A stretch of 64,000 bases of DNA, taken from contig JBBQNY010000001.1 in the NCBI GenBank assembly GCA_038330365.1, forward strand, positions 3,665 to 67,664, read 5' to 3'. Under the pieces are notes generated by a model. It saw nothing but the letters and a program-made list of their open reading frames with translations. It was not told where the DNA came from and did no database searches. Numbering within the stretch: the first letter of the stretch is position 1; each line of letters starts with the position of its first letter. The translations under genes and the position numbers were made by a program. Source of the DNA: Lysobacterales bacterium. Lineage in GTDB: Bacteria > Pseudomonadota > Gammaproteobacteria > Xanthomonadales > Ahniellaceae. Positions 1 to 57,645 of this stretch are shown here, one piece after another.

Positions 1-410
1 CGCTTCGACAGCCAGGTGTCCGCAAGCGTCTTGTTCATCGCCTGGGAGGAAACGCGTGACTCGTTGCTCTCCAGCGGGCTCACTTCGACCGCGCCGTCAA
101 AACCCTTGGGCACGTCCAGGAGTTTCAGACGAACGCCGCCGAGTTCCATGATGGAGCCGCGCTTCACAATGGCGTTGCGTTCGCTGCGACCGTCGACCCG
201 CACGCCAGTCACGACCTTGGATTCGATTCGGGCCTTGCCGTTGCCGAGCGCGGTCAGAGTCGCGTGCGCCAGCGCCGCGCGCAGGTCGGTCAGGGCCACG
301 ACCTGGTCCGCGCCGCGGCCGATGGTCAGCGTGTCGCCGTCGAACGCGAAGTCCTGGTAACCGACGTTGCCTTTGCCCTTGCGGGTTATGCGGCGTACAA
401 ACCAACGCAT
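1..410 (-). CDS. FHA-domain protein, N-terminal part only (gene runs off the left edge)
   Basis: Not in the ORF track because it has no stop in the window. The reverse complement of 410..1 reads ATG MRWFVRRITRKGKGNVGYQDFAFDGDTLTIGRGADQVVALTDLRAALAHATL...VRVDGRSERNAIVKRGSIMELGGVRLKLLDVPKG... and stays open to position 1. Third codon positions are G/C-rich. The TIGR..D..L.D....HA...G..V...L..G..LxLG pattern is FHA-like. It starts 12 nt after the stop of the upstream gene. Confidence 0.6.
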   Translation of the reverse strand, partial: MRWFVRRITRKGKGNVGYQDFAFDGDTLTIGRGADQVVALTDLRAALAHATLTALGNGKARIESKVVTGVRVDGRSERNAIVKRGSIMELGGVRLKLLDVPKGFDGAVEVSPLESNESRVSSQAMNKTLADTWLSK

Positions 411-422
411 GCTTTAAGCGTC

Positions 423-1328
423 CTACCAGTAGAAGAAGACAATGATGATGTGCGCCGTCAACGCTGCCAGCAGCGCGAACGTCAGGGGCACATGTACGTA
501 CAGCCACAGTTCCATCAGGGACTGCAGCTGGATGTCGCGTCCGACCCGTGAAGCGAGGGATTTCTTGCGCGAAAGTGCGTCAACCAGCTTGCGCATGCCC
601 TCGGCCTGGGTGTCGGTCGCCTTGGCGGCGAGGAAGTCCACCATCGCGTACATGGTCGGCATTTCCTGTGTCTTGGGCTCGCCGGCCTGGCCTTCCTTTT
701 CGCGCTTCTCGAGCGCGTCGCGTACCTGACGGAGCGCCTGTTCGGAGGCATCGTTGGTCCGCAGCATCTCGAGCACGCCACCTCCGAAGTGGGTGTTGTC
801 TATCGATCGGGCCACGATGGCGTGCAGGCGCGCATCGATTCCATCCGCGAGTTGCAGAGATTGCTGGTCGAGACTGGATATTTCCTCCAGCATGGTCTGG
901 CGTGATGCGTTCTCGCGATTGCGCGTCATCAGCGCGGGATAGCGCAGGTAGGCAAAAACGCCGAAGAACCCGGACAGGATGACCAGTGTCATCAGCGTGA
1001 ATGCCAGCGTGTGGACATTCCAGCCGAACTGGAATCCCGAATGAAGCAACGCGATCAGTAGCAGCGCCGTGCCCAGGTACACATGCGCCGAGAGCCAGCC
1101 ACCGACCGAACCAAAGTTGCTCGCGTACGCTCGCTTGCGCAATCCAAAGGTCGTCAGCCAGTAGATCAGCAGCGCACCGATGGTTCCGAGCGTGTAACCG
1201 AGCCAGGTACCGCCGTTCGGATGGGGCGATGGGTCGTGCCAGATATACGCCACGATGCTGCCGAGCAGCAAAACCAGCGCGACCCAGAGATAGCGCTTGT
1301 TGGCGTAGGTGAGGAAGGAGTCATGCAT
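423..1328 (-). CDS. integral membrane protein with two HX13H helices (putative di-haem cytochrome b-like)
   Basis: 301-aa ORF with an ATG start. It has four N-terminal hydrophobic helices, a ~130-aa polar/coiled segment and one C-terminal helix. His82-x13-His96 (AHVYLGTALLLIALLH) and His279-x13-His293 (VHVPLTFALLAALTAH) are read directly. I recognise no named family. Confidence 0.85.
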   Translation of the reverse strand: MHDSFLTYANKRYLWVALVLLLGSIVAYIWHDPSPHPNGGTWLGYTLGTIGALLIYWLTTFGLRKRAYASNFGSVGGWLSAHVYLGTALLLIALLHSGFQFGWNVHTLAFTLMTLVILSGFFGVFAYLRYPALMTRNRENASRQTMLEEISSLDQQSLQLADGIDARLHAIVARSIDNTHFGGGVLEMLRTNDASEQALRQVRDALEKREKEGQAGEPKTQEMPTMYAMVDFLAAKATDTQAEGMRKLVDALSRKKSLASRVGRDIQLQSLMELWLYVHVPLTFALLAALTAHIIIVFFYW

Positions 1329-1379
1329 GAGGTTGAGCGATCTCCCTGAGGGTCCTTGTGCAGCGCGATGGATCGGACT

Positions 1380-3791
1380 TCATCGACGCGACTGCGCATA
1401 GGCCGGGAATTCCTCGGGCGAGATACGCACTGCAGCGCCCGTTGGACACGCTCGGACACAGGCAGGCCCACCGGCGAGATCCTTGCACATGTCGCACTTG
1501 ACGGCTTTTTTCGGCGCATCTTTCTTGGCCGCGGCGGTTTTCGCGTCGAGCTTCACTTCGCCCGGTCCCGGCCCCGCGCCGAACATGAGCCAGGAAAGCA
1601 GTCCCGGTTTCGTCGGCGGCTTGGACGCCATCTGGATCACCCCGTAGGGGCAGTTGCGCTTGCAATTGCCGCATCCGATGCAGTTGTCGGCAATGAAGAC
1701 TTCACCATTGGGCGCCCGGTGGATGGCGTCCGGCGGGCAGTCCTTCATGCAATGCGGATGTTCGCAGTGGCGGCAGGAGGTCGGCACGTGGATTTCCGCG
1801 AAACTCGGTCCGGCTTCGCGGTCGAGCCTTGAGGTACCCGCGTGCGTCTCCGCGCAAGCCTTCTCGCAATTGTCGCAACGCACGCAGAGCGACTCGTCGA
1901 TCAACAGAATGTCGGTCGCCTCACCCGCTCCCTGCGAGATGAGGAACGAGATCAGGTCGCCACCCGTAGGCAGATTCTGCAGCGCCAGGTTGGCGGCCGC
2001 TCGCTGGCGATATTCGGACTGGATCCGCAGTCGCAAAATCGGGTTCTTCAGCATCAGTTCCTTGAATGCAGTCCCGTCAACGCGAACGGTTTCCGTGGCG
2101 ATCGCGGCGGTAGCGGTGGCAGTGCGTTTGCCTTCGCCCATCATGGTCATCTCGCCGACGTAATTGCCGGCTGCGACGTACGAGAGCACCACCTCGCGTC
2201 CACCGATTTGCCGGGAGATGGTCAGCGAACCCACGCGCACGAGATGCAGGGAATCCCCTTCCTCGCCTTCCCGAAACAGCACGTCGCCGGCCTTGAACTT
2301 CTCGATGCGCGCCTCTTCGACCACGGAAGCAAGCTCGGCGTAGGAGGACTCCGGTGCGAAGCGACTCTGGATCGCGCGCAGAATGAAGATCGAATCGATT
2401 TCGCGCTTGATCGCCTCGACCGAGTTGATGAGCTTGTTCATGGACCGGCGTGGGGTCTCCACCAGCACGCAACCGGCGCCGGCGAGGACGGTGGCGGAGC
2501 GACGGCGACCCGAGATGAGACTCATCTCGCCGAAGAATTCACCACTCCCGAGCGAGACACGTTTCTCCTCGCTGATCACGACGTCCACCTGGCCATCGAC
2601 GATGGAATAGAAACTGTCGGTGTAGTCGTTGCGGGCGAAGATCTCTTCACCCGGTGCGGGTGTGCGGATCTCCGAGTCCAGCATGAACTCGCGCAGCTGC
2701 AGTGGCGTGATGTGCGAGAGCAGGCGAACATTTTTCTGCACGCGTTCGAGCGCCACCTGGACCGTTGTGAATCCGGGCATGCGACCGAACTTGCTGCGCA
2801 ACAGCGGTTCGTCCGCGGGTTCGATGGGGTTGCCGAGAATGTGCTCGACAACTTCGTAACCCTGGTTCATCGCCTGCTTGATGAGCGGATAGCCACCCAG
2901 CGCGCCCACGATGTAGAGACCCGGAACGTTGGATTCGTATTTCGGACTGATCGCGGGAACCGAGGCGGGATCCTTGTTGGGGAATTCCACGCCACAGCCC
3001 TCGACGAAAGAGCGGGGGGCGGTGGCGCCGAGCCGCGCGATGATGCGGTCCAGCGCGATTTCGGCCTTGCCGTTCGGGGTGGCGAGCGCCATGCGGCCCG
3101 GCTTCTTGCCGTCGGTGACCGCTTCCACCAGTTCGGGCGCAGAACCGAAGTAGCACTCGATGCGCCCTTCCTCGATCGCCTTGGTGATCGCGGAGAGATT
3201 GCCCTCCTTGGCGCGCGCGAACTCGTCGCGGCGGTTGATGATGATGACCTTGTTGTGCTCGGCCAGCGCCACGGCATTCTCGATGGCCGCGTCGCCCGCG
3301 CCAACGATGACGATGGTCTCGCCTTCGTATTCGTCCGGATCGTCGAGCTGGTACTGCACGAACTCGAGGTCTTCCCCCGTCACACCGAGTTTGCGGATGT
3401 TGCCCTGCAGACCGATGCCCATGACCACGGTGTCGGCTTCAATCTCGCGCCCGTTGGTGCATTCGAGCGCGAAATGCCCATCGGGCTGCCGCTGTATGGA
3501 CTTGACCTCGCAGCCGTGGGCGACGTTCGTCTTGTGTTGCGCGATGCCCTGGTCCCATTCACCGAGGATCTTCTCGCGCGTGCCGGCGGCAAAGGTAAGC
3601 GGAGAACGCAGCGGCAGCGCGTCTGGCTCCGCCATGACGTGCTTGCCCTTCTGGTACCGGTAGATCGTGTTGGAGAGGTGCGGCTCGCTTTCGAGCAGAA
3701 TATGGTTGACCCCAAGCTCGGCGGCGCGTGCCGCGGCGCTCAGTCCGCCCGGCCCGGATCCGACGATGGCGATCCGAAATCGCTCTGTCAT
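1380..3791 (-). CDS. FAD/NAD(P)-dependent pyridine nucleotide-disulfide-type oxidoreductase fused to two cNMP-binding domains and a 4x[4Fe-4S] ferredoxin domain
   Basis: 803 aa. N-terminus IAIVGSGPGGLSAA, second Rossmann motif IVIVGAGDAAIENA. Two phosphate-binding-cassette-like motifs: FGEMSLISGRRRSATV and VGEMTMMGEGKRTATA. The C-terminus has CVRCDNCEKAC, CRHCEHPHCMKDCP, CIGCGNCKRNCP and CDMC-x8-CVRACP (16 Cys). Confidence 0.9.
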   Translation of the reverse strand: MTERFRIAIVGSGPGGLSAAARAAELGVNHILLESEPHLSNTIYRYQKGKHVMAEPDALPLRSPLTFAAGTREKILGEWDQGIAQHKTNVAHGCEVKSIQRQPDGHFALECTNGREIEADTVVMGIGLQGNIRKLGVTGEDLEFVQYQLDDPDEYEGETIVIVGAGDAAIENAVALAEHNKVIIINRRDEFARAKEGNLSAITKAIEEGRIECYFGSAPELVEAVTDGKKPGRMALATPNGKAEIALDRIIARLGATAPRSFVEGCGVEFPNKDPASVPAISPKYESNVPGLYIVGALGGYPLIKQAMNQGYEVVEHILGNPIEPADEPLLRSKFGRMPGFTTVQVALERVQKNVRLLSHITPLQLREFMLDSEIRTPAPGEEIFARNDYTDSFYSIVDGQVDVVISEEKRVSLGSGEFFGEMSLISGRRRSATVLAGAGCVLVETPRRSMNKLINSVEAIKREIDSIFILRAIQSRFAPESSYAELASVVEEARIEKFKAGDVLFREGEEGDSLHLVRVGSLTISRQIGGREVVLSYVAAGNYVGEMTMMGEGKRTATATAAIATETVRVDGTAFKELMLKNPILRLRIQSEYRQRAAANLALQNLPTGGDLISFLISQGAGEATDILLIDESLCVRCDNCEKACAETHAGTSRLDREAGPSFAEIHVPTSCRHCEHPHCMKDCPPDAIHRAPNGEVFIADNCIGCGNCKRNCPYGVIQMASKPPTKPGLLSWLMFGAGPGPGEVKLDAKTAAAKKDAPKKAVKCDMCKDLAGGPACVRACPTGAAVRISPEEFPAYAQSRR

Positions 3792-4019: not shown

Positions 4020-5693
4020 ATGAGTCAGCGTTTCGCCGAGTTCCAGTCCGGCCTGCCGCGCTCGGAGACGGCCGGCGACCCGGTGTTGCCGGTCGACACA
4101 AAGCGGGTGGGTGCATGGATCGACGCCTTGCCCCTCGCCAACGCGCCTGCGGCCACCAGCCAGCTGCTTGATGGGCTCTCACGCCTCAACCGGCAGTCGG
4201 TTGCAGGCACGGACCGGCTCGCGGTGATGGAGCTGATGCGGCGACCCGTGCTGATGATGAGCGAGGTGCTTGACCGGCAGGTCATCGGGGCGAGCTTTCC
4301 TCTGCCGGCCGCCAAGGTCGCCATGGCCGGCCAGCTCATTGCGCTGCAACACGGGTTGGCTGTCGGCTATCGACTGGCGCTGCGCGAGATTGCGGGTGCC
4401 GACGGGCGCATCTCCTTTCTCCGCGGCAAGGCGGCCACCACCGCGGCAGTGCGTGGCAGCCTGCATCTCGCCGAGCTTCTGTGTCGCGATTACCTGATCT
4501 ACGCGAGCCCGGCGCCCGGTGCCTGGCGGGATCTTCACCGGCTGCATGCCTTCGCCGAGGAAGCGGGAATTGCCGGCAAGTCGCTCGAGGATCCCTTGCG
4601 AAAGGATATGGAATCCTCCACCAGCATCAATTACATGACGGCACTGCTGCACGCGCTGAGCAACCCGTACCGGATGTCGCAGCGCGATATCGTCGATGCA
4701 TTCGGGGTTGCGCGCATCCTCGCGCGGCAAACGCGCTTCGACATCGGCTGCACCGGCTCCAACAGTTTCGTGGTGGCGCCAGGCGAGGATCAGGGCCCCG
4801 GCTATCTGCCGGAAGAGCGCGCAGTTGCGGACGCCGCCGCGCTCTGCGTCGATCTCGAACCGGTGACCGCGTGGTTGGATCACGAACTCACCGGGCGGGC
4901 GATCGACGAACCTTTCGTGCTGCGCACCAAGGGTTCGGCGTCGATGTCGGTGACTCCGGAGGCGCTCACCCGCATGGTCTCGAACTGGCGACCGGCGCCG
5001 GAGCGCGAGCACCAGAGACTGTCCGCGGGACATCAGCTCGACACACTGGTCGGATTGTCCGCGCTTCACCATGCACTCGCGGGCGGCCTGGATGCCGATG
5101 CCATCGAACGCAGTTTCGGTGGCGAGTCCAGGCGCATTGGCGTGCAATCAACTGCCACCTGGAGCGAGCGCTACGGCGAGCCGCAACGTCCGCAGCGCCA
5201 TGCCGCACGCGTGCTCGACCAGAGTCTCGGCGGCTACCGGCTGGAATGGGACAACGTGGTCGGAGCGCGCCTCAGGGTCGGTGAAGTCGTGGGACTTGCT
5301 CCGGCCGGGCTGGCAGATGATGAGACCGACTGGATGGTGGGGCTCGTGCGCTGGATGCGCATCCAACCCGATGGCAGCGTCGATGCCGGGGTCGAGCTGC
5401 TTTCGCGACAGGCCCGGGCGGCGGCCCTCAGTACCTACGACGCGCAGCAGCGCAAGTCGCAGCCGCTGCGGGCGATCTCGATGCGTCCCAGCAAGGGCGG
5501 TGACGAAACGCGCGAAGTACTGGTGCCCAATCGCGTCGATCGCGGCGTGGTGATGTATCGACTGATCACGGCCCCCAATCCCTACGATCCGCTCGACGAG
5601 GCTTCACGCGAACGATTCGATGCCATGGACCCCATCGAGAACAACGGCGCCTACCTGCACGTTCGGACATCGCCACGGGATTCCGGGACCTGA
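4020..5693 (+). CDS. hypothetical protein with C-terminal PilZ-like motif
   Basis: The track ORF is 3843..5693. I prefer the ATG at 4020 (MSQRFAEF...), which leaves a 228-bp divergent promoter region. Near the C-terminus are RHAAR-VL-DQSLGG (RxxxR and DxSxxG) and an upstream EREHQR. The rest matches no family I can name. Confidence 0.7.
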   Translation: MSQRFAEFQSGLPRSETAGDPVLPVDTKRVGAWIDALPLANAPAATSQLLDGLSRLNRQSVAGTDRLAVMELMRRPVLMMSEVLDRQVIGASFPLPAAKVAMAGQLIALQHGLAVGYRLALREIAGADGRISFLRGKAATTAAVRGSLHLAELLCRDYLIYASPAPGAWRDLHRLHAFAEEAGIAGKSLEDPLRKDMESSTSINYMTALLHALSNPYRMSQRDIVDAFGVARILARQTRFDIGCTGSNSFVVAPGEDQGPGYLPEERAVADAAALCVDLEPVTAWLDHELTGRAIDEPFVLRTKGSASMSVTPEALTRMVSNWRPAPEREHQRLSAGHQLDTLVGLSALHHALAGGLDADAIERSFGGESRRIGVQSTATWSERYGEPQRPQRHAARVLDQSLGGYRLEWDNVVGARLRVGEVVGLAPAGLADDETDWMVGLVRWMRIQPDGSVDAGVELLSRQARAAALSTYDAQQRKSQPLRAISMRPSKGGDETREVLVPNRVDRGVVMYRLITAPNPYDPLDEASRERFDAMDPIENNGAYLHVRTSPRDSGT

Positions 5694-45488: not shown

Positions 45489-45564
<76 letters not shown>

Positions 45565-45578
45565 CGCGTTTTACTTGG

Positions 45579-45654
45579 GTCCCCATCGTCTAGAGGCCTA
45601 GGACACAACCCTTTCACGGTTGCGACCGGGGTTCGAATCCCCGTGGGGACGCCA
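45579..45654 (+). tRNA. tRNA-Glu (anticodon UUC)
   Basis: 76 nt. GTCCCCA acceptor, anticodon loop CTTTCAC, T-arm CGGGGTTCGAATCCCCG, encoded CCA. It starts 14 nt after tRNA-Ala. Confidence 0.95.
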
Positions 45655-57288: not shown

Positions 57289-57645
57289 TGGTGGAGGCGG
57301 CGGGAATCGAACCCGCGTCCGAGAATGCTCTATCCCCAGATCTACATGCTTAGCGCGGCGTTTGATCTCATCCGACGGAAACACGACGCGCGAAGCACTC
57401 CGGCGGACCAGTTCGTTAAGTTTTAGCTGCCGACCGACAAACCGCAGTCTGCTCGCGATCCCGTGTAAATGACCGAAGGCTCACCCGCACGGACACAGGT
57501 GGCAATCGGGTCACGCGGCCTTAGGCCGCGAGAGCGTAGACGTCGTCGTTGGCGTCTGAGTTTTTGCCGCTGGATTAACGAGGAAAGCTGCCCCCTCGGC
57601 ATGCACCAAGTGATTTCGCTACCCCCGTCGAAGCCGATCGCCCCC
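57289..57645 (-). ncRNA. ssrA: tmRNA (SsrA), tag reading frame ANDDVYALAA
   Basis: 5' GGGGGCGATCGGCTTCGACGGGGG..., 3' ...GGACGCGGGTTCGATTCCCGCCGCCTCCACCA. The acceptor stem has a G3:U pair. The tag ORF GCC AAC GAC GAC GTC TAC GCT CTC GCG GCC TAA lies at 57553..57521. It sits next to smpB. Confidence 0.95.

Follow-up and report, generated by a model that had tools for sequence, protein, structure and literature searches.

Two gene trios resembling the one analyzed here have been described in preprints, in both cases without an assigned function. Ours lies at the start, and on the minus strand, of a 64-kb stretch of DNA from a Lysobacterales bacterium (hereafter the window; assembly GCA_038330365.1, contig JBBQNY010000001.1, positions 3,665 to 67,664), and encodes a flavo-iron-sulfur protein with cyclic nucleotide (cNMP)-binding domains (gene 1), a five-helix membrane protein (gene 2), and a cytochrome c headed by a forkhead-associated (FHA) domain (gene 3). 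The first described trio belongs to the ptdABCDEFG operon of Alphaproteobacteria from marine oxygen-deficient zones, given in a 2024 preprint as of "completely unknown" function (10.1101/2023.11.21.568154): PtdE is described as binding cNMP and containing 4Fe-4S clusters, PtdF as a membrane protein resembling ferric reductases, and PtdG as a periplasmic decahaem protein. Compared by description only, ptdEFG is like our trio in that the cNMP/4Fe-4S, membrane, and decahaem genes stand in a row inside a putative porin-cytochrome cluster. There a gene of its own encodes the FAD/NAD(P) oxidoreductase (PtdC), whereas here the flavoprotein is fused to the cNMP/Fe-S protein; and the ptd partners, penta- and tetra-haem proteins and a porin, are encoded upstream, whereas here, to judge from relatives, the partners are encoded downstream: a lipoprotein of HbpS type, a probable barrel, and a protein with ten haems and LVIVD repeats.

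The second is the "NHC" cluster of Ferrigenium straubiae, which comprises a [4Fe-4S] protein, a five-helix protein without an InterPro match, and an FHA-nonahaem cytochrome (10.64898/2026.01.22.701106, section 6.3.2). Its authors regard the combination of FHA and multi-haem domains as previously unreported (10.64898/2026.01.22.701106); a 10-haem "forkhead-associated protein" is recorded in 27 Gallionellaceae genomes (PMC10734462, Table 1). Again by description only, NHC is like our trio in its [4Fe-4S] protein, its five-helix protein, and its multi-haem cytochrome c, which is anchored by a single helix and has the FHA domain in the cytosol. It differs in having nine haems instead of ten and in its neighbors, nirK and an SHP-like gene. 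The NHC authors consider the membrane protein to be non-redox and the flow to run inward to quinone, whereas here four invariant histidines argue for two haems.

We read our trio as the inner-membrane entry module of a multi-haem conduit that would carry electrons from cytoplasmic NADPH outward under cyclic-nucleotide control, and give this reading a probability of roughly 0.5; it is carried by domain content, invariant ligand residues, topology, synteny, and a natural gene fusion. We regard the trio as an uncharacterized variant of the transmembrane electron-transfer systems, with a mechanism that we infer from these features. The interpretation given in an earlier note, made from the same DNA alone, is partly supported. 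The note had named no characterized system of such composition, and this holds; it had also called the system undescribed, of which the part that stands is that it was never characterized, but similar trios had been described in the two preprints. The features on which the analysis draws are the following.

3791..1380, minus strand: gene 1, 803 amino acids (aa; open reading frame (ORF) list and sequence)
2787..3791, minus strand: gene 1 aa 1-335, FAD/NAD(P)H module of thioredoxin-reductase type without CxxC (Pfam, PDB search)
1992..2768, minus strand: gene 1 aa 342-600, tandem cNMP-binding domains (Pfam, PDB search, conservation)
1422..1919, minus strand: gene 1 aa 625-790, four-cluster ferredoxin of HycB/HydN/DmsB type (Cys motifs, Pfam, PDB search)
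1329-1379, minus strand: spacer between genes 1 and 2, 51 nucleotides (nt), GGGAGA 12 nt ahead of the ATG
1328..423, minus strand: gene 2, 301 aa (ORF list and sequence)
1083-1085, 1041-1043, 492-494, and 450-452, minus strand: gene 2 codons of H82, H96, H279, and H293, respectively
411-422, minus strand: spacer between genes 2 and 3, 12 nt
410..1, minus strand: 5' part of gene 3, 136 codons inside the window, running off the window start
111-353, minus strand: gene 3 FHA-fold domain, about aa 20-100, cytoplasmic, followed by a linker

The ORF list and the sequence confirm three tight same-strand genes, as the note had described them, at gaps of 51 nt and 12 nt, and a scan of both gaps found no terminator-like hairpin in either. 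In relatives the spacer between genes 2 and 3 is typically short, several being below about 20 nt and some reaching hundreds of nt.

Domain content of the three proteins

Gene 1 joins a thioredoxin reductase (TrxR)-type flavoprotein, two cNMP-binding domains, and a 16-Cys, four-cluster ferredoxin in one chain, as found by Pfam, NCBIfam, and PDB sequence searches; its public annotation is merely "cyclic nucleotide-binding domain-containing protein." The flavin module carries the Rossmann motifs GSGPGG (aa 11) and GAGDAA (aa 164), and aa 5-311 match Pyr_redox_3 (103 bits) and Pyr_redox_2 (88 bits) above the Pfam threshold. No CxxC is present in aa 1-335, as judged from the Cys positions and from conservation across 58 homologues of 54-87% identity, which form the conservation set for this gene. 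The nearest solved relatives are the TrxR-type ferredoxin-NADP reductases 6gar, 8c3m, and 5ygq, and also YpdA/Bdr; in the PDB sequence search 6gar, 8c3m, 5ygq, and 8c16 match aa 3-300 at E values of 1e-9 to 1e-11. With two dinucleotide motifs, no CxxC, and similarity to solved members, the module has the features of a TrxR-type ferredoxin-NADP+ reductase. An identity as thioredoxin or bacillithiol disulfide reductase was rejected on the missing CxxC and on scores far under the thresholds (57.4 bits for thioredoxin reductase TIGR01292, equivalog cutoff 343; 109.6 bits for the YpdA bacillithiol disulfide reductase TIGR04018, cutoff 339.9). The motif NRRDEFAR resembles HRRDGFRA, which we take to be the NADPH 2'-phosphate site of Escherichia coli TrxR, and would suggest a preference for NADPH.

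Between the flavin module and the ferredoxin, Pfam cNMP_binding (PF00027) is matched over two stretches at 120.5 bits against a threshold of 27.5, and aa 342-591 align with the tandem domains of the regulatory subunits of protein kinase A (PKA) and of protein kinase G (PKG) at E values of about 1e-17 to 1e-19. The phosphate-binding cassettes, FGEMSLISGRRRSAT and VGEMTMMGEGKRTAT, follow the pattern G-E...R-[ST]-A, and their G-E and R-x-A residues are at least 90% conserved in the 58 homologues. All 16 ferredoxin cysteines, which lie between aa 636 and 782, are invariant in the same set; they form four groups (aa 636-646, 673-685, 704-714, and 766-782) with the spacing CX2CX2CX3C / CX2CX4CX3C / CX2CX2CX3C / CX2CX8CX3C. 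Fer4 dicluster families are above the Pfam threshold over aa 630-790 (Fer4_11, 39.0 bits against 26.2), and HycB (7z0s_B) matches aa 629-790 at an E value of 1.2e-16 in the PDB sequence search. Neither a signal peptide nor a membrane helix was found in gene 1, and its product is therefore cytoplasmic; a ferredoxin module exported to the periplasm by the twin-arginine (Tat) route was rejected, the Rossmann fold beginning at residue 5 and a twin-arginine signal being absent. Two claims of the earlier note can be placed here: that gene 1 senses a cyclic nucleotide agrees with the cassette retained in both predicted cNMP domains, and that it takes electrons off a pyridine nucleotide and feeds them to a wire of four clusters is plausible from the domain content.

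Gene 2 contains HX13H twice, not once (H82/H96 and H279/H293). Its family is large, with more than 6400 matches in a 90%-clustered collection, 2267 clusters at 50% identity (E value of 1e-3 or below), and relatives in at least 600 species genomes. Among 45 members at 33-55% identity to the window protein, 12 columns are invariant, all four histidines included; H106 is at least 90% conserved and three further histidines are not conserved. The AlphaFold2 model (predicted local distance difference test, pLDDT, 90.4; predicted template modeling score, pTM, 0.83) is confident and has five helices, at residues 12-30, 42-66, 75-97, and 105-138 and, after a helical insert, a long helix at 239-299; the insert, of about 140 aa between helices 4 and 5, is cytoplasmic. 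The distribution of Lys and Arg puts the N terminus, the loop between helices 2 and 3 (RKR), and this large insert in the cytoplasm, so that helices 3 and 5 run parallel and bring together H82 and H279 close to the cytoplasm, H96 and H293 close to the periplasm. Such pair geometry is known from cytochrome b and from NOX-type ferric reductase domains.

We look upon gene 2 as a candidate di-haem b cytochrome, predicted to sit in the inner membrane with its N terminus in and its C terminus out: the His pairs lie on the parallel helices 3 and 5, toward opposite membrane faces, and haem binding is predicted from alignment and model. The weak Pfam matches among the 45 relatives are to Ni_hydr_CYTB (38/45), DUF4405 (14/45), and Ferric_reduct (3/45), and span helices 1-4 plus helix 5 in the order of the profile; the strongest weak match to a di-haem cytochrome b family has an E value of 3.8e-8, and the best Ni_hydr_CYTB-type scores are 17-20 bits in 10 relatives. 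The last helix is in register with the HX13H helix of FdnI (H279/H293 opposite H155/H169), in an alignment that is not significant. The four invariant histidines and the weak b561-family matches in 38 of the 45 relatives thus support, as a prediction, the transmembrane di-haem geometry that had been ascribed to this protein.

Gene 3 is cut by the window edge, leaving about its first quarter, and the remainder was read from relatives. These are about 550-600 aa long and begin with an FHA-like domain, after which come a membrane helix near aa 140 and, on the periplasmic side, a decahaem cytochrome c; ten CXXCH and this helix were found in the complete homologues from the 80 loci collected (one genome per species, counts being limited to loci with enough flanking sequence), a few contig-truncated copies showing fewer motifs. 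The decahaem protein is not a member of the MtrA/DmsE family TIGR03508 (19 bits, cutoff 192.2). At its N terminus the window copy stays under the thresholds of the FHA clan (Yop-YscD_cpl, 22.2 bits against 33.2; FHA PF00498, 13.2 against 20.7); all 37 aligned relatives match FHA in Pfam (37/37; best E value 2.3e-12), and the family profile matches the solved FHA domain of GarA at an E value of 1.9e-12. That gene 3 opens with an FHA domain is in this way borne out at the level of the fold. Profile hidden Markov model (HMM) annotation of the three proteins, a check put forward in the note, gave above-threshold domains for gene 1 and sub-threshold matches only for gene 2 and the window copy of gene 3. 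As a separate observation, the 136-aa gene 3 fragment had no match in a word-indexed protein search despite 86%-identical full-length relatives in JGI/ENA, which may be a limitation of the search.

The note had further taken gene 3 for a signaling FHA protein and tied the system to Ser/Thr phosphorylation. Instead, the domain heads, on the cytoplasmic side, a decahaem cytochrome c that is anchored in the membrane, and if it nevertheless acted as a phosphothreonine switch, it would read phosphothreonine on a partner, for example the gene 1 or gene 2 product, and so switch electron flow. This would fit the confirmed fold and the Gly-Arg pair (G31-R32), which is invariant in the gene 3 FHA alignment, with H49 nearly so, and the Arg of which is the phosphate ligand in canonical FHA domains. 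It would also fit a distant relative (gene 2 at 35% identity) in which the trio is succeeded, past a 314-nt gap, by genes for a PP2C phosphatase and for a protein bearing two FHA domains, both strong (L084 9348-11206 and L085 6219-7708, two contigs with an identical gene set), as well as Hanks kinases within a few kb in 4/87 loci. However, in the alignment with GarA nearly all gene 3 FHA domains have Ala or Pro in place of the phosphothreonine-binding Ser (SxxH), and Ala or Thr in place of the Asn (NG); the Gly-Arg pair is lost in L084 and L071; and the whole domain is missing from the decahaem protein in L056, L064, L072, and L073 (Arenicella and relatives), which there has about 490 aa and its membrane helix at about aa 22. 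Either type of enzyme, Hanks kinase or PP2C phosphatase, is encoded near the cluster in only about 6/87 loci, mostly on the opposite strand; within the 64-kb window an approximate PknB kinase-domain query detected no Hanks-type kinase, and the single PP2C gene taken as query detected no relative. We consider such a switch improbable and the tie to phosphorylation weak; the FHA head is more likely a docking or regulatory domain within the complex.

Synteny and the wider cluster

A collinear gene 1 with all three modules is present in 55/59 loci, and the decahaem gene 3 in 72/72, by which chance adjacency of genes 1, 2, and 3 is ruled out. A natural fusion of genes 1 and 2 is found in L087 (8001-11333; GCA_039908105.1) as a single ORF of 1110 aa, in which the Fe/S module runs into the membrane protein at the latter's cytoplasmic N terminus; a cytochrome gene of the FHA-decahaem type follows the fusion, and genes 4-6 are absent. 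Synteny and fusion together uphold the proposal that the trio is a single unit, and the conservation analysis named in the earlier note, on whether the gene 1 fusion keeps company with the membrane and FHA proteins, was run and found this co-occurrence.

It should be noted that the trio is not the whole of the cluster. Two relatives, L001 (92% identical) and L003 (70-72% identical), carry three more genes past gene 3, and genes 4-6 lie downstream on the same strand in 38/46 loci. In relatives, gene 4 encodes an HbpS-like lipoprotein of about 685 aa; the gene 5 product, of about 600 aa, has a signal peptide and a C-terminal aromatic residue, matches nothing in Pfam, and is probably an outer-membrane barrel; and that of gene 6, of about 1320 aa, carries ten CXXCH and LVIVD repeats, the match of this outer decahaem protein to ExtM being partial (61.7 bits against 800). 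The idea of a three-gene system is right in that the trio is conserved, but the cluster that it heads numbers six genes in relatives, the last three of which would lie past the window edge and so out of the note's sight. The cluster is like MtrCAB, PCC3, and the Geobacter Ext conduits in its anchored periplasmic multi-haem protein, putative outer-membrane barrel, and large outer multi-haem protein; it differs in that a cytoplasmic flavo-Fe/S protein, not a quinol dehydrogenase such as CymA, CbcL, or ImcH, would be the feeder, and in its HbpS-like and LVIVD propeller partners. An identification of genes 1-3 with the Tenderiales LVIVD/uet proteins was rejected, the paper in question being unrelated.

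The HbpS-like protein also bears on a reading as a redox sensor, by which the trio would signal the periplasmic or extracellular redox state inward with little net flux. HbpS is part of a redox-sensing system in Streptomyces, and domains of regulatory type (cNMP-binding, FHA) are built into the redox proteins here. Yet Pfam and NCBIfam find no output domain (kinase, DNA-binding, or cyclase) in the three proteins, and twenty c haems, four clusters, and a putative barrel would be a heavy investment for sensing alone, so that we regard a mere sensor as highly improbable.

Carriers of the cluster are Lysobacterales, other Gammaproteobacteria, and one alphaproteobacterium, the closest being an Ahniellaceae metagenome-assembled genome with 89% identity; most of those found belong to Lysobacterales, Arenicella, Alcanivorax, and Oceanibacterium. 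In 3/80 loci a class III nucleotide cyclase is encoded immediately next to the module, which counts in favor of the reading proposed here: CHASE2-cyclases in L071 (7632-9869, minus strand) and L075 (7235-9517, minus strand), from both of which gene 1 is absent, and in L083 (1-3249, plus strand) a cyclase-containing ORF of more than 1082 aa with an N-terminus that looks SAM-domain-like by eye. Upstream of gene 1 in L056 and L064, and divergent from it, is a gene for a tetrahaem protein, of which the L056 copy, alone profiled, matches Cytochrome_C554.

In the window, the divergent neighbor of gene 1 (4020-5693, plus strand) is 38% identical to an L003 protein with a FimW_N match and a weak PilZ match, and retains the motif RxxxR...DQSLGG. 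A homologue lies divergently upstream of gene 1 in 27/48 loci, all of them Lysobacterales. The second-messenger theme that the note had seen in this PilZ-like neighbor is reduced to synteny at the level of the lineage, which may be all that links the two, rather than function. Elsewhere in the window, a Rfam scan of its whole length found a tmRNA gene (57289-57645, minus strand) and two adjacent tRNA genes (45489-45561 and 45579-45651, plus strand), all unrelated to the trio.

Direction and control of the proposed electron route

In the route that we propose, an NADPH-preferring cytoplasmic flavoprotein of the TrxR-type ferredoxin-NADP reductase kind would reduce the four [4Fe-4S] clusters fused to it, and this Fe/S chain would dock onto the cytoplasmic face of the gene 2 protein. 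There two bis-His b haems, held by H82 and H279 on the cytoplasmic side and by H96 and H293 on the periplasmic side, would take the electrons across the membrane, to be handed on outside to the gene 3 product, which is anchored in the membrane and would hold ten c haems, and, in this lineage, onward to the HbpS-like lipoprotein, the probable outer-membrane barrel, and the decahaem/LVIVD protein, beyond which a final acceptor would lie. The tandem cNMP domains, placed between flavin and Fe/S wire, would gate the flow on cAMP or cGMP, and the FHA-fold head of gene 3 would serve on the cytoplasmic face for docking or regulation inside the complex. Electrons leaving NADPH (about -320 mV) for the outside would run down the redox gradient with the membrane potential assisting them; neither favors an inward flow to NADP+.

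Several points weigh against this reading. The proposed cofactors, and the ligand of the cNMP domains with its gating, are predictions from sequence. Gene 2 is below the Pfam threshold for every family (Ni_hydr_CYTB PF01292, 18.1 bits against 30.1); no significant PDB relative of it was found by sequence, profile, or fold, the best Foldseek match of its model in the PDB having an E value of 0.37, with no known fold assignable; and hhalign comparisons of its family with single E. coli sequences of FdnI, MsrQ, and YodB were not significant. Gene 1 is not adjacent to gene 2 in 4/59 loci, so that the flavoprotein is not obligatory in cis; in L045 and L049, genes 2-4 are present and a hydrolase gene and a radical-SAM MiaB-like gene occupy the position of gene 1. 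The trio appears to head a six-gene cluster in this lineage, of which genes 4-6, beyond the window edge, are predicted from the 92%-identical relative. Four-cluster ferredoxins with di-haem b pairs are usually quinone-coupled, and a quinone site is thus possible. Finally, relatives in Fe(II) oxidizers have been proposed to run the opposite way (10.64898/2026.01.22.701106; PMC10734462).

The last two of these points correspond to alternatives of their own, and in decreasing likelihood the alternatives to an NADPH-fed outward route are a quinone-coupled anchor, the phosphothreonine switch, inward uptake, and the sensor. As a quinone-coupled anchor, gene 2 would be a quinol- or quinone-reactive di-haem b protein like FdnI, HyaC, or NarI, acting either in an NADPH:quinone oxidoreductase or in a quinol:decahaem oxidoreductase (cf. 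CymA, CbcL, and ImcH) with gene 1 as a second, regulated input. The best matches of the ferredoxin module are indeed quinone-coupled four-cluster subunits (ArrB, DmsB, NrfC, FDH-beta, HybA, DsrO, and HycB), gene 2 weakly matches Ni_hydr_CYTB, to which the quinone-reactive FdnI and HyaC belong, and genes 2 and 3 are kept in the 4/59 loci that lack gene 1 beside them. A 16-Cys four-cluster wire next to a di-haem membrane protein, here a candidate one, is likewise what FdnH/FdnI, HybA, NarH/NarI, and HycB share with the trio; and a link to quinone was proposed in the Ferrigenium preprint (10.64898/2026.01.22.701106). Unlike the FdnH/FdnI-type enzymes, however, the trio has no molybdopterin or [NiFe] catalytic subunit, its wire is fused to a flavoprotein and cNMP domains, and its ferredoxin scores are far under the equivalog thresholds. 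The histidine ligands of gene 2 are distributed 2+2 on two helices and not 1+1+2 as in FdnI (FdnGHI structure), and no quinone-site motif could be identified. The fused NADPH-type flavoprotein, the Fe/S wire, and the gene 1-gene 2 fusion suggest a direct route from cytoplasm to periplasm, and we hold the quinone-coupled anchor to be unlikely.

Were the flow inward, the decahaem protein would receive electrons from Fe(II) oxidases of the outer membrane, or from some other external donor, and pass them through gene 2 to the Fe/S-flavoprotein or to quinone. By description, similar trios are found in Gallionellaceae Fe(II) oxidizers, where expression of the "NHC" cluster was seen in every condition tested (10.64898/2026.01.22.701106) and the 10-haem "forkhead-associated protein" cluster is that of the 27 genomes mentioned above (PMC10734462); multi-haem conduits can, moreover, run both ways (PMC10734462). 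Against this, the cluster holds no coupling device. Flow to NADP+ would be uphill in redox terms and against the membrane potential, and the carriers in Lysobacterales, Arenicella, Alcanivorax, and Oceanibacterium, which are most of those found here, are aerobic heterotrophs and not lithotrophs. Inward uptake therefore strikes us as distinctly improbable, and we return to outward flow from NADPH.

A more specific form of that outward route, possible and offered tentatively, is that the trio is a widespread bacterial counterpart of the NADPH oxidases, carried by at least 600 species genomes, in which second-messenger-gated electrons from NADPH would pass through a hitherto unrecognized di-haem family and a decahaem wire to the cell surface, bypassing the quinones. 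The proposed path is like that of the NOX/FRE/FRD proteins in running from NADPH through a flavin and two bis-His b haems, on parallel helices with HX13H-type spacing, to an external acceptor. It differs in that gene 2 has no fused FNR-type dehydrogenase, a TrxR-type flavoprotein feeding it through four Fe/S clusters instead; and gene 2 has weak Ferric_reduct matches in only 3/45 relatives, no significant MsrQ match, and five helices with a 140-aa insert, not six helices. Most carriers found are obligately aerobic soil and marine heterotrophs, which under an NADPH-oxidase-like reading would point to a regulated extracellular reductase and not to classical metal respiration; such a reductase could help the cell, for example, to acquire iron or manganese, to balance its redox state, or to produce superoxide extracellularly.

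Some carriers are in culture (Tahibacter, Pseudomarimonas, Alcanivorax sp. 1008, and Oceanibacterium), which makes genetics feasible. If the proposed route is true, the trio would represent a new inner-membrane electron route in bacteria, leading directly from NADPH and independent of quinone, and the first instance of such electron flow being gated by a cyclic nucleotide. It would give a redox role to a large "hypothetical" membrane family that has no Pfam model or solved structure (the 2267 clusters at 50% identity), and would provide a testable inner-membrane partner for the multi-haem clusters of marine oxygen-deficient zones and of iron oxidizers.

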